64,000 bases of DNA from an uncultured Hyphomicrobiales bacterium (lineage in GTDB: Bacteria > Pseudomonadota > Alphaproteobacteria > UBA7879). The notes beneath the pieces are model-generated. The model was not told the origin of the DNA and did not search any database. It saw nothing but the letters and a program-made list of their open reading frames with translations. The DNA is taken from positions 435 through 64,434 of the forward strand of contig CAYOCE010000001.1 of assembly GCA_964402405.1 (NCBI GenBank), read 5' to 3'. Position numbers and translations under genes: made by a program. Shown here piece after piece: positions 1-24,662 of the stretch (position 1 is its first letter; each line of letters begins with the position of its first letter).

Positions 1-89
1 AACATTGTAAATACAAGGATTATGAAAAAGTGATGCCATGTGGCGCGACTGGCTACACCCTGCGAAAATCAGAAAAAAGCATAAAAAAA

Positions 90-124
90 CCCGGAGAACT
101 GGTTGGTCCTCCGGGTTTTTTTTC
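90..124. terminator. Bidirectional rho-independent terminator downstream of nrdJ
   Basis: Hairpin cccggag(90-96)/ctccggg(109-115), flanked by an A-run on the 5' side and T9 on the 3' side. It lies about 70 nt past the nrdJ stop. Confidence 0.6.
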
Positions 125-191
125 GTCCAAAATCTGTCCGGCAATAAATCCTACGCGGTTTATTTTTATGTATTTTTTTAAGTAAGTCTTA

Positions 192-3100
192 TCAGGAACA
201 ACCACTGGTGCTGCCGCATGTATCACACTTCATGCAGGTGCCATTGCGCACTAGGGTGAAATTGCCACAATCCTGACAGGCATCTCCGGCGTATCCCTGA
301 ATACGGGCACGGCGAACCTTTTCCTCGGTGCCCCCCGCTTTACTAGCCGAAGATATGGTCGATCCAGAAGTAGATCCCTTGGCAGGGGCTATATTTCCAT
401 TGGCAAAGGTCTCGCCCCCCACAACGTACAGATTACTGCGCATATAACCGGTGCTGGCACCTGCAGCCATTTCTGGTTGTGGAGCTCTCTCTACTAATTT
501 GCTTTCTTGGCTTGCGTTTCCAATGCTATCAGGGGTGAGGCTGCTTTTGTCTACATGGGCCAAATCCGTACGACCCAAATAGGAAATAGCCAACTCACGG
601 AACAAATAATCCAGGATAGACGTTGCCATCTTGATGGCATTATTCCCAGTAACCAATCCTGAAGGCTCAAAGCGCGTAAAGGTAAAGGCCTCAACAAACT
701 CCTCAAGCGGCACGCCGTATTGCAACCCAATGGAAATGGACATGGCAAAGCTGTTCATTAGGCTGCGGAAGGCAGCCCCTTCTTTGTGCATATCAATGAA
801 GATTTCCCCAACGGCCCCATTTTCATATTCCCCCGTGCGCAGGTAAACCTTGTGGCCCCCAACAGTTGCCTTCTGGGTATACCCCGTACGCCTGGCGGGC
901 AAACTGCGTCGCTCGGCCCGATGGAAAATCTTTTCCACAATGCGTTCCACGATCTTGGTGGTTTGTTGATGCTTGGAAGAATCGGTAAAGGCATCAATCT
1001 CATCCTCATCATCAAAAAGAACGCTGGCGTTCAAAGGCTGGGACAGCTTGGATCCATCGCGATACAAGGCATTGGCCTTGATCCCCAGGCGCCAGGATAG
1101 CATATAAGCATCCTTGCATTCCTCGATGGTGGCCCGGGCTGGCATATTCACGGTTTTGGAGATGGCACCTGAAAGGAATGGCTGGCATGCCGCCATCATT
1201 TTAATGTGGCTTTCTACAGAGAGGAACCGTTTCCCGATGCGGCCACAAGGATTGGCGCAATCGAAAACAGGTAGATGCTCATCCTTCAAATGAGGGGCAT
1301 CCTCAAGGGTCATCGCCCCACAGCAATAGGTGTTGGCGGATTCAATGTGTTCTGTTGAAAACCCTAAAGCCCGTAGCATATCAAAGGAAGGATCATTCAA
1401 TTGATCTTGGGTAAATCCAAGAGTCTTGGTACAAAACTCTTCGCCCAGGGTCCATTTATTAAAGGCAAATTTAACGTCAAAGGCAGATTTCAACGCACTC
1501 TTCAGCGCCTTGATTTCCTTATCTCCAAAGCCCTTTTCCTTTAGCATCTTAAAACTGACAGCTGGCGAATTTTCAAGGGTGCCATGGCCTGTTGCATAAA
1601 TAATAATCTCATCGATCTGAGATTTAGTGTACCCCAGGGTTTTCAAGGCATTGGGAACCATTTGGTTGATGATTTTGAAATACCCACCCCCGGCTAATTT
1701 CTTAAACTTCACCAACGCGAAATCAGGTTCAATGCCCGTTGTATCGCAATCCATCACCAGACCAATAGTACCTGTTGGGGCGGTTAATGTTGTCTGGGCG
1801 TTTCTATATCCGTATTTCTCCCCCAGCTCTAAAGCCTGGTCCCATGCCTGTTGGGCAGCTTCAACCAATCCCTCTACAGGGCAATTTTTAGTATCCAATG
1901 GAACGGGGAGAATATCCAATTTCTCATAGCCTTGGGATTCGCCATAGGCTGCGCGTCGATGGTTTCTGATGACCCGCAACATATCTGGGGCATTGTGCTC
2001 ATACCTTGGAAAGGCCCCTAATTCTTTGGCCATTTCAGCAGAAGTGGCGTAACTGACCCCTGTCATCAGGGCGGAAATTGCCCCTGCATAGGCCCTCCCC
2101 ACTTCGCTATCATAAGAAAGACCAGAGGACATCAACAAGCCCCCAATATTGGCAAATCCAAGTCCTAGGGTACGATAGTTATAGGTTCCCCAGGCAATTT
2201 CCTTGGAGGGGAGCTGGGACATTTGAACAGCCAGCTCTAAAACAATGGTCCATAGGCGTGTCGCATACGCGAAGCCCTCTGTATCAAAATGAATCTCATT
2301 AGGTTCTGGATTATGGTAAAACTGCATCAAATTAAGAGAGGCAAGGTTGCACGCTGTATCATCTAAAAATAGATATTCCGAACAAGGATTGGAAGCTTTA
2401 ATTCGACCGTCCTTAGGGCATGTATGCCAATCATTAATGGTTGTATCATATTGGATTCCTGGATCCGCACAGGACCAGGCAGCATAGGCAATTTTGTCCC
2501 ATAAATCTTTGGCTTTTATTTTTTTGAAAACGCTGCCATCGGTTCTGGCAATGAGGTTCCAGTCTTCATCCTTCAAGACCTTGTTCAAAAACTCATCTGT
2601 AACGCGGATGGAGTTATTGGAATTTTGCCCTGAAACTGTGAGGTAGGCTTCGGACTGCCAATCTGTGTCATAGACCTGAAAATCGATGTCTTCTTTGCCT
2701 TGGATCAAAACTTGCAATACGCGATTTATATAACTTTCAGGAACCAGGTCTTTGCGTGCATCGCGAATGGCTGATTTCAATACAGGATTTTTATGGGGAT
2801 CAGCACAGTGATCATTGTCTTGAACAGCTTTGACAATAATAGCCAAGTGTTTTTTGATTTGCTTGGATCCAGCAACGAGGGACGCCACTTTTTGCTCCTC
2901 GATCACCTTCCAATCAATGAATTCCTCAACATCCGGGTGATCCACATCAATCACCACCATCTTGGCCGCACGTCTGGTTGTGCCTCCTGATTTGATCGCG
3001 CCTGCAGCCCTATCTCCAATTTTCAGAAAGCTCATCAAGCCAGAAGATTTTCCACCCCCAGAAAGTTTTTCCCCTTTGCCTCTCAGGTTTGAAAAGTTTG

Positions 3101-3797
3101 TGCCCGTTCCAGACCCGAATTTAAAGAGGCGTGCCTCCCGAACCCATAGGTCCATGATGCCACCATCGCTAACTAAATCATCGCGGATGCTTTGAATAAA
3201 ACAAGCATGGGGCTGAGGACGAGCATAGGAACTGCCTGATGCGACGAGTTCATTTGTTTTGGGATCAACATAATAATGACCCTGAGCAGGCCCATCGATG
3301 CCATAGGCCCAATGAAGCCCCGTATTAAACCATTGAGGAGAGTTTGGAGCACACATCTGCATGGCCAGCATGTATCGCATCTCATCAAAAAACGTACGCG
3401 CATCTTCCTCGGTGTTAAAATATCCACCCTTCCAACCCCAGTAGGTCCAAGTGCCTGCCAAACGATCAAAAACTTGACAGGATGATATTTCACCCCCAAA
3501 GCGTTCTGCAGGATCTAATTTTTCTAAAGCCTCTTGATCTGCCCCATGGCACCATAACCAAGAAGGAACACCTTCTTCAGGAAGGGGCTTTAGAAACTTT
3601 GGAACACCTGCTTTGCGAAAATATTTTTGAGCTAAAACATCAGAGGCTACTTGAGACCATTTGGAAGGAACCAAAACGTTTTCCAGCTTGAAAACAGAAC
3701 CCCCATCAGGGTTTTTAATGTCACAATTGATTGATTTAAATTCGATACCTTCGTAGGGGGACTGATTGGCCACAGTAAAGCGCCTAGCAATATACAT
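192..3797 (-). CDS. nrdJ: Class II (adenosylcobalamin-dependent) ribonucleotide reductase, ~1200 aa
   Basis: 1201-aa ORF with the RNR 10-stranded barrel region (motifs ...PCSEY..., ...CNLASLNL...) and a Cys-rich C-terminal tail ([28 protein letters not shown]) typical of long alphaproteobacterial NrdJ. Upstream RBS is aaggaga. Confidence 0.9.
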
Positions 3798-3834
3798 AGT
3801 TAATTCTCCTTAAAAATCCTTAATAACACGCTTC

Positions 3835-3920
3835 GTCTTTTGAGCTGTGGTCATTAAATTTCCGGCACCTTCGTCGGGCATGTACTATAGTACATTATCC
3901 CTCCTCGGCCCCTCATTTAA
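3835..3920 (-). promoter_or_regulatory. Conserved structured leader element, copy A, in the nrdJ 5' UTR
   Basis: ~85 nt closed by ctgtgg/ccacag and attaaat/atttaat stems, with an internal perfect 16-nt palindrome atgtactatagtacat (3870-3885). It is about 85% identical to the element upstream of fdxA (14940-15024), in the same orientation relative to the gene. Confidence 0.4.
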
Positions 3921-4288
3921 TCTCCCACAGTTCAAAATACTTCAGCTATTTATGCTCTAAATTTTGAAACGTAGGCAACGTATTATTATCAAAATACATT
4001 TGAAATCGTTGGGCTCAACCGTGCACCTTAAAAGCCTAATTTTCCAATCAAGCTTTTAGCACGAAACACATCCCCAAAAAAAAGCCCCAAACACAACATA
4101 TAGTTTTATATTTCTTTTATGATAACTATATATTGATATGAGTACCCCATTTTTACCCCCCATGCAAGGAAAAAAATTTCTTTTTTGAAAGATATTTATC
4201 CCATAAAAAATTTATGAGATAATGGCCTATATCAGTCTATTGACAACCTTTTTATATAGAATACACTTAAAATCACTATAAAAATGGA

Positions 4289-4801
4289 ATGCCTATTTAC
4301 AAAAAGGAAAGAATCAAAATGAAAACAAGCAAAATGAATATCCTGGAAACTTTTTTGGGAGGAGCAGTTCTTGTTTTTGCAGGCGTTCTATTAATTTTTG
4401 CCTATATAAGAAATGAAAAAGATACTATCAAAGGATATGTCATAACAGCCAAATTTGATAAGATTGATGGGTTGGTAGCAGGATCTGATGTGCGGATGAG
4501 TGGTATTAAGATTGGGAGTGTTGCGAATCAAGCACTAGATCCCACCTCTTATTTAGCTATTGTGAATATGAATATTGCTAATCACGTGAAGATTCCTACA
4601 GATTCATCGGCCTCTGTTGTGAGCGAAAGTCTTTTAGGGGGAAAATATATGGATGTTGTCCCCGGTGGTGATGATACGTTTCTAAAGCCAGGCGAAGCAA
4701 TTCAACACACTCAATCCTCAGTAAACTTTGAAAAAATGATTGGGCAAGCTATCTTTAGTAGTAAAGATAGCAAGGATAAAAAAGAAGAAACCAATAATTG
4801 A
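4289..4801 (+). CDS. mlaD: MlaD (Mce-domain) outer-membrane lipid asymmetry protein
   Basis: N-terminal TM anchor followed by an Mce domain (ITAKFDKIDGLVAGSDVRMSGIKIGSV...YLAIVNMNI). The true start is probably the internal Met at ~4319 (MKTSKMNILE). Confidence 0.8.
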   Translation: MPIYKKERIKMKTSKMNILETFLGGAVLVFAGVLLIFAYIRNEKDTIKGYVITAKFDKIDGLVAGSDVRMSGIKIGSVANQALDPTSYLAIVNMNIANHVKIPTDSSASVVSESLLGGKYMDVVPGGDDTFLKPGEAIQHTQSSVNFEKMIGQAIFSSKDSKDKKEETNN

Positions 4802-4804
4802 TCC

Positions 4805-5212
4805 ATGAACCAAATTACAAAATTATTTTTTTTGCTTCTTCTTTTGCTGTGTTCTCTAGGGATCTGTGCGCAAGAAAAGACCGATAGCGTAATTTTACAG
4901 GGTCTTGATAAGGTAACAGCCAAGGTTTACTCGGTGAACGCCCCCATAGGGTCCGTTGTGAAGTTTGGAAACCTTAAAATCATCGTGCACCAATGTCATA
5001 AAAGCAATCCAGAGGATCCCCCTGAATCCGTTGCCTATTTAGCAATTATAGACGCTAAAACCGGAGAGGATGAGCAAGTTATTTTTGATGGATACATGTT
5101 TGCTTCGTCCCCTGCAATTTCTTGTCTGGAACATCCTGTTTATGATGTGTGGATTAAAGAATGTAAGAGCTTGCCCAAGCATCGGACCTCCTCAGCAGAA
5201 GTCGGAGCTTAG
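4805..5212 (+). CDS. DUF2155-family secreted protein, the conserved MlaD neighbour in alphaproteobacteria
   Basis: Signal peptide plus LQGLDKVTAKV...HQCHK...PPESVAYLAI motifs characteristic of DUF2155. It sits immediately downstream of mlaD. Confidence 0.65.
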   Translation: MNQITKLFFLLLLLLCSLGICAQEKTDSVILQGLDKVTAKVYSVNAPIGSVVKFGNLKIIVHQCHKSNPEDPPESVAYLAIIDAKTGEDEQVIFDGYMFASSPAISCLEHPVYDVWIKECKSLPKHRTSSAEVGA

Positions 5213-5313
5213 ATACAGATCCTGGTTTTCACCAGAGTACAATTCATTTTTAAGTTGCCAAATATATGATTTATATTATATAGTAATAGTATAATAAATA
5301 AAAAGGTGTAAAA

Positions 5314-6078
5314 ATGATATATTATGTAAGGGAGTGCTCATCAAAAATAAATAGAAATATTTTTTCTTTTGTTTTTTTTCTTATATTATTTGCATTAATC
5401 TGTTTCTTTTCCTTGTCTTATATAGATCAACAAAACACATTGGAATTCTATAATAAGCAGCTCCAAATACTAACCGTAGATCTCAAAAAGTCTACCTCAA
5501 AGGAACTCGGAGAAGCTGAGCAAATTAAAGACTTGGAAAGAATCGTAGCTCAAGAAAAAAATATTATAGGGTCAGATGAAAATAAAATTAAAGAATACAA
5601 AAACTTATTGCAGGGGATTATGTCATCCGCTCAATATCAAGTATATAAATACTTTAAAGAAAACGTAAAAGAATACCCTGATATTTCTTTCTCAAATGAC
5701 AAATTTTTATTTAATCAAAAGGTTTATTTTTCCCCAGGATCCACGCGCCTAAGTAAAGAAGATCAAAAAACCATAGATCAAATAATACCAATTCTTAATC
5801 AGATGGAATCAAGGGTTCCACAACATCTAAATTGGGCACTACGAATTGAAGGTCATACAGATAACAAACCAGTTGATACAGATTTATACCCTTCAAATTG
5901 GTACCTTTCAACAGCACGAGCAGCTAAAGTAGTGGAATATCTAATTAAAAAGGGAATTAATTCCAAACACTTAATTGCTATAGGGTTTGGGGATAATAAT
6001 CCCATTTCAGACAATCAAACAACTGAAGGTAAATCTCAAAACAGACGTGTTGAATTTGTAATTGGATTCAAAGACTAA
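5314..6078 (+). CDS. OmpA/MotB-domain peptidoglycan-binding membrane protein
   Basis: N-terminal TM helix, a coiled-coil segment, and a C-terminal OmpA-like domain (NWALRIEGHTDNKPV...LSTARAAKVVEYLIKKGI...NRRVEFVI). Confidence 0.7.
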   Translation: MIYYVRECSSKINRNIFSFVFFLILFALICFFSLSYIDQQNTLEFYNKQLQILTVDLKKSTSKELGEAEQIKDLERIVAQEKNIIGSDENKIKEYKNLLQGIMSSAQYQVYKYFKENVKEYPDISFSNDKFLFNQKVYFSPGSTRLSKEDQKTIDQIIPILNQMESRVPQHLNWALRIEGHTDNKPVDTDLYPSNWYLSTARAAKVVEYLIKKGINSKHLIAIGFGDNNPISDNQTTEGKSQNRRVEFVIGFKD

Positions 6079-6155
6079 TACTATTTCCCAGAAATAAGCA
6101 TCCATCTGACCTGCAGCATTTTGGTCATTTGAATACTTATTTCTGGGAAATAGTA
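6079..6155. repeat. Perfect 20-bp inverted repeat (37-nt loop) immediately after the OmpA-family gene stop
   Basis: tactatttcccagaaataag (6079-6098) is the exact reverse complement of cttatttctgggaaatagta (6136-6155). No U-tract follows. It separates the OmpA-family gene from the three-gene cluster below. Confidence 0.6.
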
Positions 6156-6237
6156 TAAGAAAGTTCTTAAGAGAAAACTACAGAGGTATTGCATCTCTCT
6201 ATCAATTCATATACTCTAAAATAAATATAAAAAACTT

Positions 6238-7074
6238 TTGGGGGGAATTTTGATAAAGAGCATCCACATTTTTTCGTGCCTTTTTTTGGTGTTTTTGGGA
6301 GGATGTACCCGATTATCACAAAAGGAGAGTTTTTCCTTAAATAAAGGATCAAAACTAGGGCAATTTAAATACGTTATTCTAAAAGAACAAGATTTTTCCG
6401 GGTATAAAATAATAGGGCTATATGCTTTTTCTTCAGATTTCCGAAATTGTATATTTAAGAAAACGAACCTAAGTAGCAGTTCATTTATTAACTCAAATAT
6501 GAAAAATTCAGATTTTTCAGGAGCAATTTTAAATCAGATTATTTTTGATAAAAGCAACTTAGAGAACTCTAATTTCAACAATACAATGTCTACCTATCCC
6601 TCTTTTGAAAATGTAAATATCAACGAAAGTTCATTTGAAAATGCGTCTTATCAACTGGCAAATTTTTATAGTGCTCTGGGTGAAAAAGCTAGCTTTAATA
6701 AAGCACATATGATGTCTGCAACTTTTATGAACACTAATTTACGGGGCAGTTCTTTTGTTGAGGCGAATCTCAGTAATTCTAATTTTGAAAATGCTCAGTT
6801 AAAAGAAGCAGATTTTAGTAATGCCATTTTGAGTCGTTCTAATTTCAAAAATGCTGATCTAGGAGGGTGTGACTTCACGGGCGCGGATCTTAGTTTTGCA
6901 AATTTAAGTGGTGCAAATATGAGTGGGGCAACTTTCTCTAATACAAATCTTGTGGGAGCAAAAATTTGCGATGCGACTTTATCTGATGGCCAAAGGTCAA
7001 ATTTCTGTTCATCAAATTTTCCTAAACCATCAGGGGTCATGACAATTCTGGAACATACTAGGGCAGCCAAATGA
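6238..7074 (+). CDS. Pentapeptide-repeat lipoprotein
   Basis: Lipoprotein signal (LVFLGGC) followed by ~200 aa of tandem A(D/N)LSxxNFxxA pentapeptide repeats (ANLSNSNFENAQLKEADFSNAILSRSNFKNADLGGCDFTGADLSFANLSGANMSGATFSNTNL). The stop overlaps the next start (atga). Confidence 0.8.
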   Translation: MGGILIKSIHIFSCLFLVFLGGCTRLSQKESFSLNKGSKLGQFKYVILKEQDFSGYKIIGLYAFSSDFRNCIFKKTNLSSSSFINSNMKNSDFSGAILNQIIFDKSNLENSNFNNTMSTYPSFENVNINESSFENASYQLANFYSALGEKASFNKAHMMSATFMNTNLRGSSFVEANLSNSNFENAQLKEADFSNAILSRSNFKNADLGGCDFTGADLSFANLSGANMSGATFSNTNLVGAKICDATLSDGQRSNFCSSNFPKPSGVMTILEHTRAAK

Positions 7075-8021
7075 ACCGAAAAATTTTATTAATCTTTGTT
7101 TTCTTAGCTTTTGGATCTCGCTCTATTTTAGCGGATGGATCTCATTTTGTCATGGGAACAAACTTAGTAAGTCAGCTTTATTGGGTAATTGGAGCAAACT
7201 TATGTCAACTGATGCACTCCAAGAATGCTGGATTTGAATGTTTAGCAGAAAAATCAGATGGTTCTGTTGCTAATGTCTGGGGGCTTAAAGAAGGGCTATT
7301 TGATATAGCTTTAGCAGGAAAAGATACCGTTGAGCGTATGTATAAAGGGGATCCAGAAAATGGAGTTAATCCAATTTCTTCTCTTCGATTAATTATGCCC
7401 CTTTATGTCAATAAATTTACGATCATTACAAACCCTCAATCAAAAATTGGTACCCCCAATGACTTAAAAGGAAAAAAAATTGATATTGGTGTCAGAGGGT
7501 CAGAATCCTATAGGGCTTTTAAAGATTTTATGAAAATTAAAGGATGGACTGATAAAGATTTTGGAAAAATTTATGCATCAGAGCCATTTACACAAAAATC
7601 TAATTTATTAAAAAACAAAGTTGATGCCATTACTATATTTGAAGGAAGTCCAAATTCATGGGTTTGGCGTATTCTAGATGTATATCCTGGGCATATTCTA
7701 TCTTTAGATGCCCAAGATATATCAGCATTAAGTCAAAAATTCAAAAATTACATTCCTGTAACTATGGATGCAAAAATGTACCCCAATAATAACTATGTTA
7801 TTCAAACATTTGGAACAGAAGTATATTTGGTCGCAACAGAATCAACAAATCCAGATATTATATATACGTTCTTAAAAACAGTAGATCAAAATATGTATGA
7901 GTTAAAAAAAACGCACCCCGTTCTAGCAGATGTTTATACTTATAATGTAAAAAGAGAGAAACCGATCATTCCTCTGCATCTGGGTGCTGAACGTTACTTG
8001 ATTGAAAGAGGCATACTATGA
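7071..8021 (+). CDS. Periplasmic solute-binding-protein-like, TAXI/TRAP-type family, with no cognate permease nearby
   Basis: Signal peptide. GTNLVSQLYWVIGANL near the N-terminus and DLKGKKIDIGVRGSESYRAFKDFMKIKGW resemble TAXI-family receptors. The start overlaps the upstream gene and the stop overlaps the downstream secretin gene. Confidence 0.45.
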   Translation: MNRKILLIFVFLAFGSRSILADGSHFVMGTNLVSQLYWVIGANLCQLMHSKNAGFECLAEKSDGSVANVWGLKEGLFDIALAGKDTVERMYKGDPENGVNPISSLRLIMPLYVNKFTIITNPQSKIGTPNDLKGKKIDIGVRGSESYRAFKDFMKIKGWTDKDFGKIYASEPFTQKSNLLKNKVDAITIFEGSPNSWVWRILDVYPGHILSLDAQDISALSQKFKNYIPVTMDAKMYPNNNYVIQTFGTEVYLVATESTNPDIIYTFLKTVDQNMYELKKTHPVLADVYTYNVKREKPIIPLHLGAERYLIERGIL

Positions 8022-9847
8022 GTAAAAATGTGAAAATGGGGTTGTTTTCTAGTATGATTTTGGCTTTTGTGGCGTGTACCCCTCAAAAGAACCAACATAC
8101 TTTGGATCCTAAATCAAAAGCTAAAGCGGAAGATTTTATTGTGATGCTAAAAGAAAGCACTAACAATACTCTTAGCACTCATGAAATTGAAGGAATAGAG
8201 CTACTTTATAAGGGATCCTATCAGAAGGCATCTGAAAAATTTAGTTTGGCTCTGGCTTTTTCGCCCCAGTCTGGATCTGCTCATTTTTTAAATGCTCTTG
8301 CGTATCATTTATTGGCTAAAGAGGGAAATACAAGTAAAAATGAATTAGCTGAAGTTGGATATGGTCTTGCTAAAAACTTTTCACCCGATAATGTTTATGC
8401 ATCTTATTATCATGGTATTTTAAATTTTGAAAACAAGAAATATCGGGAAGCCCAACAAAACTTTGCAGATGCTCTAATTCTAAGGCCAAATGATCCTAAA
8501 ATTCTGTATGCTTTGAGTGTTGCCTCTTATTATTCCCATGATTTACAGGTGGCAGCGGGCGCTATTGCACAAGCTATACGTTTAGATCCAGCTTCTGCAA
8601 AGTATTTACATGCGGCAGCGTTAATTATGGCTGCGGAAGGCAAAGAACAAGAAGCCCAAGAATATACAAACAAATTAATAGAATCTGGGGCCTCTAAAGG
8701 ACAACTAGAATTTTTGTCGAAGAGAATTAAAGAGTGGAAACAATTTCATAACGGTCTGTTAAAAAAAGCAAGCTGGAGCATTGAAAATACTCAGGGTGCC
8801 CAATCAGATAAAACTGATTCAACAGAAGAAAAAAATCATGATGATGATATGATTATTGTAGATGTGGTGATTGTTTTGGCTCAAGAAAACCTCAATGAGG
8901 CGCAAGGCATGAATCTATTGTCTGGATTACAATTAACATTTGGGGCACCCAATACGACTATTACCGGTGGTACACAAACCCCTGGTTATTCAAACACGCG
9001 AAACATTGGAACTGCAGGTTCATTTTCTAAAAGTATTGTAACAAATATCAGTATTCCCGCAATTACCTATCAATTAAATATAGCCAATATACAAGGATCC
9101 AATACAGAGGTTCTCGCACGCCCCAGTCTGGTGGCGCGTAATGGAAAAATGTCCAAATTTTTTTCAGGAGACGTCTTAACAATTGGACTTGCAGGAAGTG
9201 CAGGAGGAAACCCTACTTATAAAGATAACAAGGTTGGGGTTAATTTACAGGTAACCCCTCGCATTTTAGAAGATGGTCAGGTCAATTTGCAAATTACTGC
9301 TTCTAGAAACTTTTTTACATCAACTAATACGAATGTTACTGGTGGTAATAATTCTTTCCAAAACAGCCTTCAGGTATCTGATACGGAAATCACTGCAGAT
9401 GTGGTTTTAAATATCGGAGATACTTTGATTCTAGGGGGGCTTAGCGAAAAACAACAACAAGTAAATACAGACTCCACGCCAATTTTAGGAGATATTCCCA
9501 TCATACAACATTTATTTAGTGCAAAAAAAACAGCGCTCATAAATCGGTCCGTTATTATTTTGGTAACACCTCGTTTTCCTTCTTACACTTATCAAACACA
9601 GAATACCCGGAAAAAAAATGCCCACTTTAAAGATGGAGATAACAAGCCTAGCAATCTTGATGAATTAAAGGCCCGTTATATTGATTGGTTCAAGCCCTAT
9701 CCTAACCTAGCTTCGGCCTTTCATCATATTGATAACTATAATCTCTATCGAGAGTTTAGGACAGGAGACGTACAACTAGAGCAATGGAATCGCATGGATG
9801 ATTTAATGGATCGCATACAATCAAGTATGGAGTTCTTATATTATTAG
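8018..9847 (+). CDS. TPR-repeat (pilotin-like) lipoprotein fused to a secretin C-domain
   Basis: Lipobox (ILAFVAC) and ~250 aa of TPR-like repeats, followed by a secretin domain (ARPSLVARNGKMSKFFSGDV...VGVNLQVTPRILEDGQVNL...TPILGDIPIIQHLFS...RSVIILVTPRF). No recognisable N0/N1 secretin domains. Confidence 0.7.
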   Translation: MSKNVKMGLFSSMILAFVACTPQKNQHTLDPKSKAKAEDFIVMLKESTNNTLSTHEIEGIELLYKGSYQKASEKFSLALAFSPQSGSAHFLNALAYHLLAKEGNTSKNELAEVGYGLAKNFSPDNVYASYYHGILNFENKKYREAQQNFADALILRPNDPKILYALSVASYYSHDLQVAAGAIAQAIRLDPASAKYLHAAALIMAAEGKEQEAQEYTNKLIESGASKGQLEFLSKRIKEWKQFHNGLLKKASWSIENTQGAQSDKTDSTEEKNHDDDMIIVDVVIVLAQENLNEAQGMNLLSGLQLTFGAPNTTITGGTQTPGYSNTRNIGTAGSFSKSIVTNISIPAITYQLNIANIQGSNTEVLARPSLVARNGKMSKFFSGDVLTIGLAGSAGGNPTYKDNKVGVNLQVTPRILEDGQVNLQITASRNFFTSTNTNVTGGNNSFQNSLQVSDTEITADVVLNIGDTLILGGLSEKQQQVNTDSTPILGDIPIIQHLFSAKKTALINRSVIILVTPRFPSYTYQTQNTRKKNAHFKDGDNKPSNLDELKARYIDWFKPYPNLASAFHHIDNYNLYREFRTGDVQLEQWNRMDDLMDRIQSSMEFLYY

Positions 9848-9854
9848 TATACCC

Positions 9855-9937
9855 CTCGTCTTTCAAACTGTGGATCGCAAAATTTACTGATTCACGCATT
9901 ACAACTACCAATCCACCCATTACATTTGTGGATTGTT
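9855..9937. repeat. Mosaic short repeat, copy C, with hairpins; shares modules with the nrdJ/fdxA leader elements
   Basis: ctcgtctttcaaactgtgg (9856-9875) matches the 5' module of elements A and B. tgattcacgcattaca and caatccac...gtggattg (9889-9936) match the tgattcacgcgttacacttgtgaatca module at 15022-15048. It lies between two convergent genes. Confidence 0.35.
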
Positions 9938-10045
9938 GCCTAACGGCCGTGGATCATTGCCTAAAGGTCTGAAATACTGTGGGTATAGTAGGACCTTTGC
10001 ATAACTCTTTCTTACCGGCGGAAGCCAGGGTGGTTGCAAACTAAC

Positions 10046-10081
10046 AAAAAACCCAGAAGATTACTCTTCTGGGTTTTTTAT
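10046..10081. terminator. Bidirectional rho-independent terminator between the secretin gene and tlc
   Basis: cccagaag(10052-10059)/cttctggg(10066-10073) hairpin with an A6 run upstream and a T6 run downstream. Confidence 0.65.
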
Positions 10082-10101: not shown

Positions 10102-11646
10102 TCAAGACTTTTCTGCAGCCTTTTGTTCTTCAACCAAGGTTGTAAAGCGCTTGTTAAGGCGTATAACCGAGAACATCCAAATAAGACAAATCACGATCAC
10201 TGTGGGGCCTAAGATATAGGTGAGGCTTGCCAAAGAGACACTCCCACCAATTACCGCAAGCATCGTTGATTGAATGAATGCTCCACCGGATTTACCCAGG
10301 CGTCCACCGATAACCTCAACCGCTGCTTGACCCTTGGTCTTAGCCTCAGGATCCAGAGGGATATAAGCCATCTGCTTAGTGGAATCAAATAGGGAGTACT
10401 TGGTTCCCTTGGACATCACGTTTTGGATCAATCCAACAATCACAGCCACCATGACAACCGTCGTTCCCATCAATGGCATTGTTGGATCATGGGTCACTCC
10501 ATCCCAAACAACGAGGAAGAAAATAGAGGATGTCACCAAGATCATCAATGGCGTAATGATCGCAGCCTTGAGCCAGCTGAAGCGACGCAAGATATTGTTT
10601 CCCACAACCATCAGAGCAATCGTAATCGCCCCTGTCCATGTGGTGAATACACCCATGAAGTTGTTATAGTCGTTCTTGTCTGGGAACGCGATCTTCATCT
10701 GTCCCTTCCACACGCCCTCAACCAAGTTAATGGCGATTCCATAGGATAGAACCAAAACAGCAATGAGCAAAAGATAAGGGTTGCTGAGGATATATTTAAA
10801 GCTTTGACCAACAGAAAGCTTTTCTTTCTTTTTCTTACCAGATCCTTGACCTGGTTGATAAAGAGCTGGGTCAGTTAAAACGTTCTTGTTCATCCAACGA
10901 TAGATGGTCAGAATTAAAAGTCCAGAAACCATAACTGCCCCCATGAGGAATTTTAGGTTGATACCAAAGGTATCCACGTTAGCTGGAAGACTTTTAGCAT
11001 ACTGGGCACACATCATAATAGTAGGACCAGCAACCACCAATCCCAGGTTTCCAATCATGCCAAACAATCCATAAAAACGCTTAGCTTCGTTAACTTTGGT
11101 AATTTCGTTGGCAAACTGCCAGAACAACATAGACAACACCACACTTCCCCATAGTTCTGAGAAAATGTAGAAGAGGCTAAAGCTCCAGTTACCCACAACA
11201 GGGATTGCCCAGTGGAGGTTAGGAAGCTTTGCTTGCCACGTGGTAATTGTGTCTAAGCTTGCATGAAAAAGTTCTATATTAGGGTAGATCAAAAAGGCAA
11301 AAGACCCGAAGAAAATCAAGAAAGGCGCCACAATGACATAGAATAATTTTTCCCGATCAAACACGTTTGCAAGCTTGATGAAAATAACCATAAACAAAAT
11401 AGCCGAAGGTGTAACCCCATAAAGCTTGAGGAATCCAAGGCTTTCTGCCCCGCCTCCTGGCATGTTCACAACCAACGTATCCTTGGTATCACGAACAATG
11501 TTGTATATAAAAAGGATACACATCATCATAAGGCCCATGGGTAAGAACTTCTTTATTTCGAAGTTATAAATGGGCCAGAATATTGCTTTAAAACCCGAAA
11601 ACTCTGGCTTATCAGCAGCTTTATTGGTAGATGACATGATTTTCAC
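10102..11646 (-). CDS. tlc: ATP/ADP translocase (nucleotide transporter, NTT/Tlc family)
   Basis: 514-aa 12-TM protein with the characteristic Tlc N-terminus (FWPIYNFEIKKFLPMGLMMMCILFIYNIVRDTKDTLVV) and overall Tlc-family architecture. Confidence 0.9.
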   Translation of the reverse strand: MKIMSSTNKAADKPEFSGFKAIFWPIYNFEIKKFLPMGLMMMCILFIYNIVRDTKDTLVVNMPGGGAESLGFLKLYGVTPSAILFMVIFIKLANVFDREKLFYVIVAPFLIFFGSFAFLIYPNIELFHASLDTITTWQAKLPNLHWAIPVVGNWSFSLFYIFSELWGSVVLSMLFWQFANEITKVNEAKRFYGLFGMIGNLGLVVAGPTIMMCAQYAKSLPANVDTFGINLKFLMGAVMVSGLLILTIYRWMNKNVLTDPALYQPGQGSGKKKKEKLSVGQSFKYILSNPYLLLIAVLVLSYGIAINLVEGVWKGQMKIAFPDKNDYNNFMGVFTTWTGAITIALMVVGNNILRRFSWLKAAIITPLMILVTSSIFFLVVWDGVTHDPTMPLMGTTVVMVAVIVGLIQNVMSKGTKYSLFDSTKQMAYIPLDPEAKTKGQAAVEVIGGRLGKSGGAFIQSTMLAVIGGSVSLASLTYILGPTVIVICLIWMFSVIRLNKRFTTLVEEQKAAEKS

Positions 11647-11799
11647 CTTTCTTTAAAAATAGTTAACGTTAAAAAATAAAAAACCCCTTTAAGGATAGAC
11701 TAGCATCAAATTTTTGATTTTCAAAGTATCCAGAAAAGGCCATAGATTCTAAGAAATAATCTTAGAAGAACAAACCTATATACCTAAAAAATTTCCTTG

Positions 11800-13101
11800 T
11801 CAATCCCCACCTTTCTTCAAATCAATTGGATATTTTTTGGTTAAATAATGGAGGACAATTAATCCTGGAATGGCAGCCAGAATAGAGATGGCAAAAAACT
11901 GGGGCCATGTTGTATTATCGGCGATAAAGCCAGAGGTGGATTGCACCCCAATCCGGGTAAATGCCATGAGAGAGGAGAACAAGGCATATTGGGTGGCTGT
12001 AAAGGAGATATTGCAGAGGCTGGAAAGATAGGCCACAAAAGCCCCCGTCATCATACCCCCAGATAACCCTTCAAATCCCACAGATACATATAGCCAGAAA
12101 ATAGAAGGCCCTGTTTCAGCAAGAACAAAGAACATAGCATTGGAAATTGCATGAAGGACACCGCTAATCAAGAGCGTTTTCATTAGCCCGAAGCGAGCAG
12201 AAAGAACGCCCACCAACATGCCTCCAAATAAGGCAACGAATACCCCAAAAGATTTGGAGGCGGTTCCTATGTCCGTTAAACTAAAGCCGAGTTCCTTGTA
12301 AAATATATTCCCCATGGGGCCTATGATGTTATCTCCAAAGCGATACAGAAGAATAAACAACAGAATTAATGGCCAACCGGGTTTTTTCATGAAATCCAAG
12401 AAAGGGTTGAAGACAGCATCCTGAACCCAGGCCATTATATTGGGATAAGAATGCTCAACTTGTCGACTGATGGTAGGTTCTTTACACAAAAGAGTTGTTA
12501 CAATTCCAACCCCTACACAAATGGCCATGATAATATACATGGTTTCCCAACCATAGGTGTCTGCTAACACCAAAGCGCCACCCCCTGCCATAATCATACC
12601 CAGGCGGTATCCATTGACCTCCATGGCGCCAGCAGCGGCTAATTCTTCGCGGGGAACCGTTTCAATACGATAGGCATCGATCACAATGTCTTGACTTGCG
12701 GAAGCAAAAGCGACTAACACTGCCCAAATAGCTGTTTGATGAAGATGATGAAGAGGGTCAGAAAATCCAAGCCCCAAGATAGCCACAACCAAGGCTAACT
12801 GAGTCAGTAATAACCACGACCGACGTCGACCTAAAAGGTTATGGAGAATGGGAATCTTAACTTTGTCAATAATAGGAGACCAGGTGAACTTCCACATATA
12901 GGCACTCCCCACAAGGGTGAAAAGGCCAATGGTTGATTTACTAAGGCCGAAGGACTGCAACCACATGGAAAGAGTGGAAAGAGTTAGTAATAGAGGCAAT
13001 CCACTTGAAAACCCTAATAACCCAATCACCAACATCCTGGGTTGGATATAAAGGGCAAAGGTAGAAAGGATGGATTTACGGTTATTTGAAACGGATGACA
13101 T
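11800..13101 (-). CDS. ampG: AmpG-family MFS muropeptide permease
   Basis: LGFSSGLPLLLTLSTLSMWL...GLFTLVGSAYMWKFTWSPIIDKV...LGRRRSWLLLTQ matches AmpG signature regions. Confidence 0.75.
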   Translation of the reverse strand: MSSVSNNRKSILSTFALYIQPRMLVIGLLGFSSGLPLLLTLSTLSMWLQSFGLSKSTIGLFTLVGSAYMWKFTWSPIIDKVKIPILHNLLGRRRSWLLLTQLALVVAILGLGFSDPLHHLHQTAIWAVLVAFASASQDIVIDAYRIETVPREELAAAGAMEVNGYRLGMIMAGGGALVLADTYGWETMYIIMAICVGVGIVTTLLCKEPTISRQVEHSYPNIMAWVQDAVFNPFLDFMKKPGWPLILLFILLYRFGDNIIGPMGNIFYKELGFSLTDIGTASKSFGVFVALFGGMLVGVLSARFGLMKTLLISGVLHAISNAMFFVLAETGPSIFWLYVSVGFEGLSGGMMTGAFVAYLSSLCNISFTATQYALFSSLMAFTRIGVQSTSGFIADNTTWPQFFAISILAAIPGLIVLHYLTKKYPIDLKKGGD

Positions 13102-13135: not shown

Positions 13136-14398
13136 CTAGCCGATTAAAACACTAAATGGCAAGGCAATTAAAGAGTCAGAAAATTTTAAAGGCTCTTGCC
13201 CGCCGTATAAAATTAGCCCTTTGGTAGTTGATGAAGAAGTCGCCTCAATAAAATCTTTTAACCCCTCAAAATCTTTTTGAGTTAATGATTCTGCAAATTT
13301 GATTTCTATTCCCCAGAGCTGAGTTCCTCTTTCTAAAACAAAATCTACTTCTTTTCCAAGATACGTTCTATAAAAATAGATTTGTGTAGGAATTGTTGCA
13401 TAAATTATTTTTCTTAACTCTGCATATACCCATGTTTCAACCACTGCTCCCAACTGAGGATGATCTTTCAAATGATTAGGAGAGAGTATGCTAAGCAAAA
13501 AACACATAATCGCCGAATCATTCACATACGTTTTTGACATCTTCACGAGTCTTTTTTTTGTGTTTTGATGCCATGGTTGTAACTCATGAGACTGGAAGGT
13601 TATTTTTAGGATTTCCAAATATCGCGCTACTGTACGCTGATCTAGACTTGTGTCTAAGGCTAAGTTATTCATGTTGAGAAGATTACCGCTCCTCATCCCA
13701 ACCAACCTTAAAAGTTTACTGAATCCAACAATATCTATGAGATTATTTAAATTCCTTACATCTTTTTCTATATACGCCTGTTGATAAGAAGAACACCATC
13801 GATGCGTAAAATCAGTCTGCTGCGTAAGAGCAAGATTTGGAAATCCTCCAAAATAGCATTTCTCTAAAATGGCATCTCGCTTTAGGGGGGTAATTTCTTT
13901 TAATTTTCTTCTGTAATAAGAAATAATAGACTCTACATCACTTGTTTCAAATAATTTAGTTAGTAAATCGGAAGGTGATTTTTTTAAGTAAAGCTCGGAC
14001 ATACTAAGCCCTTCCAAGGTCACAATGTCCATACGCCCTGCCAAGCTTTCCATCACCCCTGGATAGGATAATATGTTGGCCGAGCCGGTTAGTAAAAAGC
14101 GACCAGGAGCGCGATTTTGATCAATATTTTTTTTAAGAGCCCGCATCAAATCTGGGACGCGCTGGATTTCATCTATCGCAACAGATCCCTCGAATTGACT
14201 CAAGAATCCATCAGGGTCGGCAGACGCTGCCTCCAATGCCCCCAAGTCATCTAGACTGACATAATGATCTACTAGCTTTTCTGCCACAAGTTGCCCAATC
14301 ATAGTAGATTTGCCAACTTGCCGAGCTCCGTTAATCAAAACAGCCGGAAAATACTTTAAGGACTCATATACATGTTTTATAAGGTGTCTTTTGATCAT
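13136..14398 (-). CDS. AAA+ ATPase with C-terminal DUF4143 domain
   Basis: Walker A (INGARQVGKST) and the DUF4143-type C-terminus (EVDFVLERGTQLWGIEIKFAES). Confidence 0.7.
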   Translation of the reverse strand: MIKRHLIKHVYESLKYFPAVLINGARQVGKSTMIGQLVAEKLVDHYVSLDDLGALEAASADPDGFLSQFEGSVAIDEIQRVPDLMRALKKNIDQNRAPGRFLLTGSANILSYPGVMESLAGRMDIVTLEGLSMSELYLKKSPSDLLTKLFETSDVESIISYYRRKLKEITPLKRDAILEKCYFGGFPNLALTQQTDFTHRWCSSYQQAYIEKDVRNLNNLIDIVGFSKLLRLVGMRSGNLLNMNNLALDTSLDQRTVARYLEILKITFQSHELQPWHQNTKKRLVKMSKTYVNDSAIMCFLLSILSPNHLKDHPQLGAVVETWVYAELRKIIYATIPTQIYFYRTYLGKEVDFVLERGTQLWGIEIKFAESLTQKDFEGLKDFIEATSSSTTKGLILYGGQEPLKFSDSLIALPFSVLIG

Positions 14399-15889: not shown

Positions 15890-15966
15890 GGCGGGGTAGC
15901 TCAGTTGGTTAGAGCAGCGGAATCATAATCCGCGTGTCGGGGGTTCGAGTCCCTTTCCCGCTACCA
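15890..15966 (+). tRNA. tRNA with CAU anticodon (elongator Met, or lysidine-modified Ile2)
   Basis: 77-nt cloverleaf GGCGGGGTAGCTCAGTTGGTTAGAGC...anticodon loop aTCATAa...GGTTCGAGTCC...CCA. The anticodon stem lacks the three consecutive G:C pairs of initiator tRNA. The CCA end is encoded. Confidence 0.8.
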
Positions 15967-23762: not shown

Positions 23763-24662
23763 ATGAAGAAATTTATTGCAGCCACCTTGATTATAGGATT
23801 GATTTTTAACACCACTGTTTTATCTTGCCAGGGGATGAATGATCCATTCGCACCTAACTCTGCCCCTGTTACACCAGTAAAAACAAGTAGGAGCGCATCG
23901 GTAACAAGCTCACCCAGTGGAAGTGTTGCCAGCGAAGATAGTGTAGATGATAAAGCGGCCCTTGAGAATGCTAAAAAGAGGATTGCTCGCTTCGAAATAC
24001 AAGTTAAAGAAAATAATCGTTTGCTTGGGGAAGTATTTAACGTATTGGGCTCTTGGAGAAAAGACCCTGTATTAGATGAGGCCATAGCGCACCATCCCTG
24101 GAAAAATTTAATAAAGGGAAAAATTGGTAGTCAGCACCTCTCCGAGTTGTTACAAATAGTTTCAACCCATTTTGAACGAAAAGGCGAAGAACTACGCACA
24201 CGTCTTGGAGGGTTAGTTTCTGGGAAACAAGATGCTGCGGCTTCTTCTGCTGAAACTGCTCTGGAACCAGTATTGGCAGGCCCTCTTGGTGATGCAGAAC
24301 AGGAAATGAGAAAAATAAGACAAGAATTAGCAGAATTAGAAAGTCTTAAAGAAGAGCTAAGAGTAGCAACGCAAGCTCAAGAAAGGTTAACTAAAGAAAA
24401 AAGTGTATTGGAAGAGGCTAAAGAACAACAAGCTAGAGAATTGGAACGATTAAGGAAAGAGTTGGAAGACGAAAGAAAGGCAAGAGCCTCTACTGCGGCA
24501 TCTAGTTCTGGAGTAGTAGTGACAAAAGACACTTCCTCAGGATATACGTCTAGAGATCTTATATGCGCAGGAGTTGGGGCTGCAGCAACACTCCTAGGTG
24601 TTTTTCTGTGGAGTTATATGAGATCCGTTCCAGCTGCTGCAGGAGTGCCATCAGACCTTTAG
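23763..24662 (+). CDS. Lipoprotein with a Ser-rich low-complexity region, a long coiled coil and a C-terminal TM anchor (hypothetical)
   Basis: Signal/lipobox (TVLSC), an S/T-rich tract, a heptad-rich segment (ELAELESLKEELRVATQAQERLTKEKSVLEEAKEQQARELERLRKELEDERK), and a C-terminal hydrophobic helix. Confidence 0.5.
   Translation: MKKFIAATLIIGLIFNTTVLSCQGMNDPFAPNSAPVTPVKTSRSASVTSSPSGSVASEDSVDDKAALENAKKRIARFEIQVKENNRLLGEVFNVLGSWRKDPVLDEAIAHHPWKNLIKGKIGSQHLSELLQIVSTHFERKGEELRTRLGGLVSGKQDAAASSAETALEPVLAGPLGDAEQEMRKIRQELAELESLKEELRVATQAQERLTKEKSVLEEAKEQQARELERLRKELEDERKARASTAASSSGVVVTKDTSSGYTSRDLICAGVGAAATLLGVFLWSYMRSVPAAAGVPSDL

Follow-up and report, generated by a model that had tools for sequence, protein, structure and literature searches.

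We analysed a 64,000-nucleotide stretch of DNA (hereafter the window, about 64 kb) from an uncultured Hyphomicrobiales bacterium (GCA_964402405.1, contig CAYOCE010000001.1, positions 435 to 64,434, forward strand). Its subject of interest is a module of three consecutive genes, which encode a pentapeptide-repeat protein (PRP), a solute-binding protein (SBP) of the TAXI family and a lipoprotein that joins a tetratricopeptide-repeat (TPR) domain to a secretin pore (TPR-secretin). Loci related to this one are identified by L-numbers, such as L085. The genes and the domains of the secretin are as follows.

6238..7074, plus strand: PRP gene; 278 aa from the TTG at 6238, probably 274 aa from the TTG at 6250
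7071..8021, plus strand: gene of the TAXI-family SBP; 316 aa, signal peptide aa 1-21
8018..9847, plus strand: TPR-liposecretin gene; 609 aa
8018..8077, plus strand: secretin lipoprotein signal peptide, up to Cys20 (ILAFVA-C; family consensus L-x-G-C)
8177..8752, plus strand: TPR domain, aa ~54-245, about 6 repeats (TPR_2, TPR_CcmH_CycH and others)
8849..9577, plus strand: pore core of the secretin, aa ~278-520, connected with the TPR domain through a low-complexity linker of ~30 aa
9578..9844, plus strand: family-specific C-terminal helical extension, aa 521-609, with the aromatic tail ...EFLYY-COOH

The genes are translationally coupled, the stop codon of the PRP gene overlapping the TAXI start by 4 nt (gccaaATGAaccg at 7071-7074) and the TAXI stop codon overlapping the secretin start in the same way (atactATGAgtaaa at 8018-8021), in both cases as ATGA. 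An earlier interpretation made from the letters alone (the sequence-only reading) had described these three open reading frames and their overlaps, and coordinates and junctions were both confirmed. Profile scores against Pfam and NCBIfam likewise confirmed its domain calls (pentapeptide, TAXI, TPR plus secretin), and inspection by eye found the export signals that it had placed on all three products. The N-terminus of the PRP (...FLVFLGGC) is a lipobox, and its LGGC is shared by the PRP homologues in L085 and L086. The TAXI protein has a classical signal peptide, with cleavage read between MNRKILLIFVFLAFGSRSILA and DG (...SILA-DG). In the TPR-secretin family a crude pattern detected a lipobox in 56 of 84 members. 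The true start of the PRP is more likely TTG 6250 than TTG 6238, because GGGGGGA precedes it and because the arrangement is conserved in L085 and L086.

The C-terminal domain encoded within 8018-9847 does score as a secretin: Pfam PF00263 matched aa 359-519 with 106 bits against a cut-off of 27.5, alongside TPR families, and the GspD model aligned to aa 279-519 with its positions 338-588 only (TIGR02517). Sequence matches of the core among solved structures in the PDB were PilQ, GspD and RcpA (6e-16 to 1e-9). All equivalog scores lay far below their cut-offs: 81.4 bits against 351.35 for GspD (TIGR02517), 79.5 against 284.35 for PilQ (TIGR02515), 59 against 554 for HofQ (NF010083), 63 against 250 for MshL and 50.6 against 238.45 for SctC (TIGR02516). 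As to the N0-N3 domains, there was no Secretin_N (PF03958/PF21305), STN or pil_N Pfam match in the protein or in 87 full-length homologues. BON (PF04972) and T2SS-T3SS_pil_N (PF13629) gave no match in the window secretin either, whereas CpaC-type relatives do carry them. The C-terminal extension contains a conserved block, RYxDWFxPYPN...LYREFRTGDV.LE.W, and about 60 of 72 family members end in the aromatic tail F-[LI]-[YFHW]-[YF].

The 87 full-length homologues were recovered by protein search at E<1e-50, and all of them had PF00263 and TPR families only. Canonical GspD/CpaC-type proteins appeared only at E>1e-14, and the GspD-type ones (P0088 onward) carry N-domains. In a profile search of 1.84 billion representatives, 672 representative clusters were found at E<=1e-30, as against 23,753 at 1e-10 for secretins generally, and the best 150 profile matches mostly aligned over most of the profile. 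By its sequence, then, the TPR-secretin is a distinct full-length family. A monomer model built with AF2 from 72 homologues (mean pLDDT 71) contained a confident all-helical TPR superhelix at aa 54-245 (pLDDT about 90), a disordered linker of ~30 residues, a beta-rich core at 278-520 of moderate confidence and a helical C-terminal extension at 528-608 of low to moderate confidence. Foldseek against the PDB matched the core to 8jvb (4e-16) and to GspD, PulD, InvG, RcpA, PilQ and pIV (3e-13 to 5e-9), with probability 1.00, and the TPR part to generic TPR proteins.

The TPR domain gave weak matches to PilW (TIGR02521) and to PrsT, a PEP-CTERM TPR lipoprotein, and appears pilotin-like, resembling PilF, PilW and TadD. 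Homologues are named 'PilF' or 'CpaC/TadD' by JGI, and source annotations also include 'general secretion pathway protein D'. In the Tad system, the four C-terminal residues of RcpA lie in the TPR groove of TadD (PMC10499894). The window protein resembles a pilotin fused to a secretin whose inner-membrane docking domains have been lost, since it combines TPR domain and core without N-domains and ends in a tail recalling that of RcpA in the TadD groove. We regard the secretin as a known type of protein with a new architecture, and the system around it may turn out to be a new type of machine. Tandem duplicated TPR-secretin genes occur in L007, L027, L031 and L046; the copies in L007 and L027 have one TAXI and one PRP gene between them, so that heteromeric pores are possible.

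The distribution of the family was determined by a scan of one genome per species, which gave 361 TPR-secretin loci. Eighty of these were fetched (1.38 Mb) and combined with 80 metagenome loci (0.56 Mb), making 160 loci and about 1.9 Mb, with at most 22 kb inspected per relative and 64 kb of the present genome. Carriers are mostly Alpha- and Betaproteobacteria, and include Gammaproteobacteria, Magnetococcales, Mariprofundaceae, Desulfovibrionaceae, Nitrospinaceae and Elusimicrobia, nearly all of them free-living lineages. The predators Micavibrio and Halobacteriovorax carry family members, and cultured carriers are Terasakiella, with a PRP-type module (L033), and Thalassospira and Kiloniella, with sister variants. 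We counted gene linkage in the 60 loci whose secretin was flanked on either side by 1.5 kb or more, using HMMs from neighbour clusters, and found PRP adjoining the secretin in 35 of them. The neighbours were distributed as follows.

19/60 loci: PRP and TAXI
6/60 loci: PRP and a divergent family-3-like SBP (SBP3)
10/60 loci: PRP only, no detected SBP
13/60 loci: tectonin protein, frequently accompanied by a Cys-rich ricin-B protein plus AraC regulator
1/60 loci: TAXI and tectonin
11/60 loci: none of these neighbours

Linkage was also found in the reverse direction. Metagenome contigs were scanned with a degenerate DNA pattern for the PRP N-cap motif alone, and of the 37 loci recovered with at least 2.5 kb upstream, 30 contained a TPR-secretin, 25 of them immediately upstream. 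The commonest orders are TAXI-secretin-PRP and secretin-PRP-SBP3. The order PRP-TAXI-secretin, with an OmpA/MotB-like gene first, was found in the window and its two closest relatives, L085 and L086 (secretin identity 72-74%), with which the window shares 60-74% protein identity, synonymous sites being saturated. Close coupling accompanies each order: in 14 of 25 loci the end of the TAXI gene runs 4 nt into the start of the secretin gene; between PRP and SBP3 the overlap is 4 nt or 1 nt, for example in L024, L025, L049, L052, L053 and L054; TAXI overlaps PRP in L058, as PRP overlaps TAXI in the window; and secretin and PRP are usually spaced by -3 to 16 nt. When the secretins were placed in a neighbour-joining tree, the loci grouped by neighbour class. 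The trio is not a chance association, and homologues of the three genes are co-localised in many genomes; a lack of such co-localisation is what the sequence-only reading had named as refuting it.

Several variants depart from this pattern. PRP-SBP3 pairs or MFS-c14-PRP sets without a secretin in the fetched region occur in L089, L106, L112, L144, L151 and L165, and in L103 and L140, the last two being MFS-c14-PRP sets (c14, an ABC_sub_bind-like protein); L089, L103, L140 and L151 have no secretin within 7-12 kb. Such sets indicate that PRP and binding protein may be the tightest functional unit, with the secretin possibly encoded elsewhere. At L065:8847-14547, one secretin gene is followed by two PRP genes with a second (split) TAXI gene between them. 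The sister clades have neither SBP nor PRP next to the secretin, and have instead large exported lectin-like proteins (tectonin, ricin-B), or FG-GAP proteins beside a di-haem peroxidase. In Thalassospira and relatives (L063, L073, L075, L076, L078, L079 and L082; for example L073:3271-11526) the order is AraC, ricin-B protein, secretin, tectonin; the Cys-rich/ricin-B lectin protein is ~800 aa long with a glycine-rich hydrophobic middle, the tectonin beta-propeller protein has 830-1030 aa, and the cassette looks like a regulated lectin or toxin unit. In L037, L048 and L061 (for example L048:1504-6817), di-haem peroxidase/cytochrome P460 and FG-GAP/ASPIC proteins lie directly upstream of the secretin, joined in L037 and L061 by a giant protein of ~2100 aa. 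A small conserved exported protein of ~170 aa lies downstream of the secretin in L037, and also in L047 and L062.

Secretins are textbook parts of type II secretion systems (T2SS), type IV pili (T4P), Tad pili, type III secretion systems (T3SS) and filamentous-phage export, where an inner-membrane machine drives them. To our knowledge, the N0-N3 domains couple the pore to the T2SS, T4P, Tad, T3SS or phage assembly platform in every known secretin. Searches by tblastn (E<=0.01) with E. coli GspC, GspE to GspM, GspO, HofB, HofC and PpdD gave no match in the window, nor any in the 80 genome loci (1.38 Mb), and in the 0.56 Mb of metagenome loci detected one isolated prepilin-like gene. The CpaF ATPase, covered indirectly by the GspE and HofB queries of the same family, had no match in the window or the 80 loci. 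The sole PilM_2 match in the window was FtsA, and no T3SS family was present among the window Pfam matches listed, which are partly those of the 25 commonest families only. The sequence-only reading had seen no adjacent ATPase, pilin, GspE/F, CpaF or T3SS gene, and it would have been refuted by a classical gene set nearby that accounts for the secretin; no such set lies in the window or in the related loci.

The PRP matched Pfam Pentapeptide (PF00805) at 9e-34, with 115 bits against a cut-off of 20.2, in four stretches. Its repeats, at aa ~48-250, correspond to about 10 coils of a quadrilateral beta-helix and are followed by a C-terminal cysteine pair (C244...G251...C257). PDB matches by sequence were pentapeptide proteins and DotG/IcmE; DotG of the Dot/Icm system likewise bears pentapeptide repeats. 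Equivalogs of the Qnr/MfpA/HetL/PipB type scored far under their cut-offs (HetL 90 against 260, Qnr 55 against 240), and the window PRP has a lipoprotein signal, unlike the cytoplasmic or T3SS-effector location of proteins of that type. The secretin-linked PRPs form a subfamily with an N-cap CxxCDLRY, a C-cap C-x6-G-x5-C and exactly four conserved cysteines. Their N-termini are exported, mostly by a signal peptide and sometimes with a lipobox. A profile search for the subfamily in a set of 5.8 billion proteins was swamped by long generic cyanobacterial pentapeptide proteins and was uninformative.

The length of these proteins is fixed. From first to last cysteine the core measures 239-240 aa in 34 of the 41 PRPs in which both cysteine motifs were located, despite 25-40% identity, and deviations are whole 20-aa coils (220 and 259 aa). 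For a protein built of repeats, such constancy suggests a structural part with a set geometry. In the window clade LGQFKY replaces CxxCDLRY and one 20-aa coil is lost, while the C-terminal cap is kept; on the subfamily HMM the window PRP scored 229 bits, against about 280-410 for typical members, and its gene linkage is kept. The isoelectric point (pI) of the PRPs spans 4.3 to 9.9, and the idea of a DNA-mimic plug is not supported by this variation.

The binding protein is a clear member of its family, with NMT1_3 (PF16868) at 4e-50 and TRAP_TAXI (TIGR02122) at 168.5 bits against a cut-off of 84.35 over aa 1-314; solved TAXI structures in the PDB matched at 4.5e-33 to 2e-27. We mapped 13 ligand-site positions of VcGluP from V. 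cholerae (PMC11574862) onto the TAXI proteins of the module. In two comparisons among free-living carriers, cleft positions were conserved at 92% against 44% for the rest of the protein (p=8e-4) and at 100% against 47% (p=8e-5). Such conservation argues for a real, shared small ligand in these carriers, and the R and K residues at cleft positions suggest that it is anionic. Glutamate was rejected as the ligand, key VcGluP residues not being kept. In one clade the TAXI protein is replaced by the non-homologous SBP3, which implies that the conserved property is ligand binding and not a particular fold surface.

No TRAP permease of the DctM type was found in the 64-kb window, as the sequence-only reading had stated, and no homologue of the DASS or MFS (c10) permeases of related loci was found there either. 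Among the 160 loci, 25 have a linked permease, either MFS (c10) or cNMP_binding+Na_sulph_symp/CitMHS, and 22 of the 25 also have the c14 protein. In L104, L128, L137 and L148 the genes follow one another as TAXI, secretin, GAF protein, cNMP_binding+Na_sulph_symp/CitMHS permease, anchored c14 and PRP (for example L137:1878-9152, minus strand). Other orders are TAXI-secretin-PRP-permease-c14 and [MFS with a sensor-like N-terminus]-c14-TAXI-secretin-PRP, and further permease-bearing loci are L138, L022, L088 and L105, and L008, L010, L023, L036, L028, L092 and L118. The permeases linked in relatives are thus of two unrelated types, DASS and MFS, and are not TRAP-QM. TAXI proteins can serve non-TRAP permeases (PMC12344293). 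Since TAXI recurs in one operon with inner-membrane permeases, it must work in the periplasm.

Our tentative reading, which we hold with somewhat less than even confidence, is that the trio supplies the half of a trans-envelope conduit that lies in the outer membrane and periplasm, a conduit coupled to a binding protein and working without a motor, with the PRP as strut, ring or plug. From the gene set we infer a physical complex with its subunit ratio, the function of the PRP as strut or plug, which way transport runs and what kind of substrate is carried. The TPR-secretin would pilot itself to the outer membrane by means of its lipid anchor and TPR domain and then form a multimeric gated pore; its aromatic C-terminal tail may sit clamped in the TPR groove, as the RcpA tail is clamped by TadD. 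The PRP beta-helix would be a rigid rod of family-wide fixed length that binds the periplasmic TPR face at about 1:1 and, whether as strut, ring or plug, substitutes for the missing N-domains and stops the pore leaking. The TAXI protein would capture a small, probably anionic solute from the pore in the periplasm and deliver it to an inner-membrane secondary permease. In the operons of relatives this permease would be the MFS protein with a sensor-like N-terminus or the cNMP-binding DASS-type protein, each with its anchored ABC_sub_bind-like partner. The sequence-only reading had considered the PRP as cargo or plug and the TAXI protein as cargo or adaptor. The weight now shifts from cargo to a stoichiometric structural partner and solute handling, because the PRP length is fixed, the genes are coupled whatever their order, the TAXI cleft is conserved in relatives and permeases recur in the operon.

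Known systems resemble this module in part. RcpA-TadD and PilQ-PilF/PilW likewise bring together a TPR lipoprotein and a secretin pore, RcpA ranks with the top matches both by sequence and by fold, and the RcpA C-terminus in the TPR groove has its counterpart in the conserved C-terminal tail of the TPR-secretin family. They differ in that TPR and secretin are here one polypeptide without pil_N/BON or N0-N3 domains; there is no linkage to cpaF/tadBC, pilMNOP or pilin genes as in Tad and T4P, and the partners are instead a PRP and an SBP. BcsC, PgaA, PelB, AlgK/AlgE and the curli proteins CsgG/CsgE/CsgF are outer-membrane lipoprotein- or TPR-linked channels without an outer-membrane energy source. 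The BcsC, PgaA, PelB, AlgE and CsgG channels are porin-like barrels or CsgG nonamers with linked synthase or cargo genes, the curli cargo being, like the PRP, a beta-solenoid. These polysaccharide and curli exporters share with the module an outer-membrane channel that is a lipoprotein or TPR-linked, and periplasmic accessory proteins, but the channel is here a secretin and no synthase or cargo is linked. Self-piloting liposecretins, namely HxcQ of Pseudomonas aeruginosa, BfpB, TcpC and MshL, have an N-terminal lipid anchor and no separate pilotin. The window secretin is lipid-anchored in the same way, whereas the liposecretins keep their N-domains and belong to complete T2SS or T4bP operons, and the MshL model fits it poorly (63 bits against 250, as above). 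BfpB is called a lipoprotein in a passage of PMC12531336.

The closest parallel for a PRP on a secretin is cyanobacterial. PilQ of Arthrospira, a 16-mer, co-purifies with a pentapeptide protein of ~30 kDa that was fitted as a massive lower ring (PMC12475490). This protein, NIES39_A07680, is a pentapeptide solenoid modelled as a ring on the periplasmic side of the PilQ nozzle; the authors considered it specific to cyanobacteria and reported no gene linkage (PMC12475490). The nozzle differs from the present module in that PilQ is a canonical T4P secretin with N-domains, and our comparison with NIES39_A07680 is by description, not by sequence. SlkA and SlkB are small periplasmic plugs that occupy the PilQ channel and keep the outer membrane tight without a docked inner-membrane complex (PMC13392014); their folds are unrelated as far as known, and they act on a motor-coupled T4P secretin before docking, whereas for the present module we expect no motor. 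Compared with TAXI-TRAP and TAXI-GltS systems (PMC11574862, PMC12344293), the TAXI protein here passes the family cut-off and is linked in relatives to DASS or MFS permeases, but those systems have no described outer-membrane component, the window has no permease and the VcGluP glutamate residues are not kept. In full-text literature searches, neither a secretin fused to TPR repeats nor a gene set of secretin, PRP and SBP was found described, nor was any outer-membrane partner of TAXI, which agrees with the view of the sequence-only reading that no secretin system of this composition had been described. Papers on the 'secretin-like complex' of Flavobacterium membrane tubes (PMC8455137) and on the A. 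caldus secretin nanopore 8jvb (PMC13031482) were uninformative on the biology of the family.

A bolder version of the conduit reading, which we regard as rather doubtful, is that of a new class of system: a motor-less conduit in which a ring of PRP struts, acting as a periplasmic ruler, links the TPR-secretin to an SBP-dependent permease. Secretins of this class would serve regulated traffic of solutes or small polymers, and in the TLC-bearing, plausibly intracellular organism of the window such a wide gated pore could provide the otherwise missing passage through the outer membrane for bulky host metabolites. If true, the conduit would widen the roles of secretins beyond the passage of proteins, pili, phage or DNA. 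It would also give a concrete structural role to the PRPs, a very large family for which hardly any function in the periplasm has been assigned, provide independent genomic support for the PilQ-pentapeptide nozzle finding and indicate an outer-membrane partner for TAXI-type transporters. Even under a cargo model, a motor-less secretin that exports proteins would be new.

A number of observations weigh against the conduit. We know of no secretin that serves solute uptake or that works without an inner-membrane filament, needle or phage machine. In the window clade itself, conservation of cleft positions against the rest of the TAXI protein was 69% against 64%, 31% against 61% and 46% against 61%, and the residues corresponding to Q93, E125 and Y200 of VcGluP are replaced, so that ligand binding may be altered or lost there. 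A linked permease was found in only 25 of the 160 loci and not in the window. The wide pI range of the PRPs leaves no conserved surface charge for a shared interaction, and the AF2 monomer of the secretin is only moderately confident outside the TPR domain. The duplicated TAXI-PRP pair of L065 is more easily explained as duplicated cargo, and the lectin-like and FG-GAP neighbours in the sister clades look more like cargo too.

The last of these observations lead to the chief alternative, dedicated cargo export, which we consider unlikely yet serious. Here the TPR-secretin would be a stand-alone exporter of neighbouring proteins delivered by Sec, with the TPR domain as periplasmic cargo receptor; the PRP lipoprotein would reach the surface like PulA, and the cargo of sister clades would be tectonin and ricin-B lectins and giant adhesin-like proteins. 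It accounts well for the fact that the neighbour of the secretin is always Sec-exported while its identity changes by clade (PRP, tectonin, ricin-B/Cys-rich, FG-GAP with giant protein), for the resemblance of Thalassospira-type loci to an AraC-regulated lectin/toxin cassette and for L065, where the duplicated pair stands beside one secretin. Secretins are moreover known to pass folded proteins, and a statement in PMC12718363 places a TAXI protein in the extracellular biofilm matrix of V. cholerae. However, the window is free of motor and pseudopilus genes, the related loci (about 1.9 Mb) contain a single isolated prepilin-like gene, and the secretin lacks the N0-N3 domains that would couple it to an unlinked motor. 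Fixed PRP length and the equimolar type of translational coupling in all orders fit a structural subunit better, TAXI is repeatedly operonic with inner-membrane permeases and hence periplasmic, and PRP also occurs with permease and c14 where no secretin is nearby (L103, L140).

An improbable alternative is a polymer nozzle, in which secretin and PRP ring would form the exit of an exopolysaccharide on a TPR scaffold like those of BcsC, PgaA, PelB and AlgK, powered by polymerisation at the inner membrane and modelled on cyanobacterial and myxobacterial slime nozzles. A TPR domain with an outer-membrane channel is a hallmark of synthase-dependent polysaccharide exporters, and counts in its favour. 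So do the PilQ-PRP nozzle precedent (PMC12475490), the weak PrsT match in the TPR region, the glycan-binding lectin-type neighbours of sister clades and a large nonulosonic-acid/polysaccharide cluster in the window at 28-52 kb. But this cluster is 18 kb off on the other strand and is not beside the module in relatives, no glycosyltransferase, synthase or Wza/Wzc-type gene recurs among neighbours in the 80 genome loci, and the SBPs and permeases are left unexplained. It is less probable still that the secretin is an orphan part serving a T2SS, T4P or Tad system encoded elsewhere, with PRP and TAXI as unrelated neighbours. The limited DNA inspected (64 kb here and at most 22 kb per relative) and the homologue annotations quoted above speak for it; against it stand the two-way PRP/SBP linkage across phyla with 4-nt overlaps, the tracking of secretin phylogeny by neighbour class, the lack of N-domains for docking GspC, PilP or a T3SS basal body, and scores far under all equivalog cut-offs. 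A remnant of a filamentous phage (pIV-like) or a defence island is extremely improbable. PHROG phrog_1012 (M13 protein IV) matches the secretin at 1.3e-15, in the generic core only, and the PRP has a weak NCBIfam match to the pentapeptide region of Hailong HalA; yet none of 2.9 million viral contigs carried a relative, PADLOC matched none of the three proteins, and the flanks are housekeeping genes (RNR, MlaD, FtsZ and others) without phage genes, in a synteny kept in L085. Phage pIV and defence readings are effectively excluded by the viral contigs, PADLOC and the housekeeping flanks.

The sequence-only reading also proposed that the module serves host interaction in an obligate-intracellular bacterium. 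The first part is unsupported: the carriers are mainly free-living Alpha-, Beta- and Gammaproteobacteria, Magnetococcales and others, and a module found chiefly in free-living bacteria is not an invention for host interaction. In the window clade it is at most a retained, derived form, with permuted gene order, a shortened PRP lacking the CxxC cap and a relaxed TAXI cleft. The second part is hinted at by a TLC ATP/ADP translocase gene next to the module and by FtsZ, which places the organism approximately, as a deep-branching alphaproteobacterium; among named relatives, FtsZ is closest to those of a Rickettsiales MAG (62%), of Paracaedibacteraceae (61%) and of Nucleicultricaceae (59%); translocase and FtsZ relatives of the Holosporales/Rickettsiales kind make an intracellular lifestyle plausible but unproven, and the translocase suggests energy parasitism. 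The TLC adjacency is not shared by L086, which has RecG instead. The translocase gene and the other flanking features are as follows.

5314..6078, plus strand: gene of an OmpA/MotB-like peptidoglycan-binding protein with an N-terminal TM (transmembrane) segment, coiled coil and OmpA_C (Pfam OmpA 1.6e-20)
6075..6159, no strand: inverted repeat between the OmpA-like and PRP genes; 37-nt arms, 86% complementary, 11-nt loop
6191..6256, plus strand: conserved intergenic block, TTGCATCTCT..AATTCATATACTCTAAAATAAATA..AAAAAA, then GGGGGGA (6240-6246), then TTG 6250
10046..10079, no strand: G+C-rich 15-bp hairpin with A and T runs at its sides, between the convergent secretin and TLC genes
10102-13101, minus strand: TLC ATP/ADP translocase (PF03219, 2.9e-197) and AmpG-like MFS permease, converging on the secretin operon

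Two neighbours that had been associated with the module proved to be of local extent. The OmpA/MotB-like gene, taken earlier for an upstream peptidoglycan anchor, is real, and its product has PRK09039-type NCBIfam matches below cut-off. It lies 5' of the PRP gene in L085 and L086 and is absent from the 80 genome loci, so that it neighbours the module only in the small clade of the window, and it was rejected as a module member outside that clade. The hairpin between this gene and the PRP gene exists as well, with a perfect core of 21 nt (6078-6098 / 6136-6156; 0 matches expected by chance), but no counterpart was found in the short intergenic region of L086; its probable role is to terminate or insulate the upstream gene. 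The conserved block downstream of it has 51 invariant columns in an alignment of the window, L085 (~8208-8275) and L086 (~606-690). PRP and TAXI coding DNA of the same three genomes is too diverged for blastn, unlike this intergenic block of ~50 nt, which is probably a promoter/operator-like element of the operon together with a Shine-Dalgarno-like site and the PRP start. At the other end, the hairpin at 10046-10079 is likely a bidirectional terminator that closes the operon.

Upstream of the PRP gene, Pfam identified MlaD, DUF2155 and the OmpA/MotB-like gene. The rest of the window encodes a class II ribonucleotide reductase (RNR), an AAA/DUF4143 protein, Rpe, FtsZ/FtsA, a Tim44-like protein, malic enzyme, MFS transporters, RodA/PBP2, LptA/B and the large nonulosonic-acid/polysaccharide cluster. 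This cluster, at ~28000-52000 on the minus strand, has a low GC of 0.28-0.36 and contains NeuB, two cytidylyltransferases, several epimerases/dehydratases, a DegT aminotransferase, WbqC, PIG-L, glycosyltransferases and methyltransferases, as well as a 613-aa open reading frame (42876-44717) with no Pfam match. GC is 0.33-0.38 in the MlaD-to-secretin block (4001-10000), as against 0.45-0.48 in the ribonucleotide reductase region (1-4000), a shift that could reflect membrane-protein gene composition or a different origin. The gene of the AAA_14/DUF4143 ATPase adjoins the AmpG-like gene (13136-14398, minus strand). Another open reading frame, of 299 aa at 23763-24662 on the plus strand, also had no Pfam match, and a tRNA gene lies at 15890-15963.

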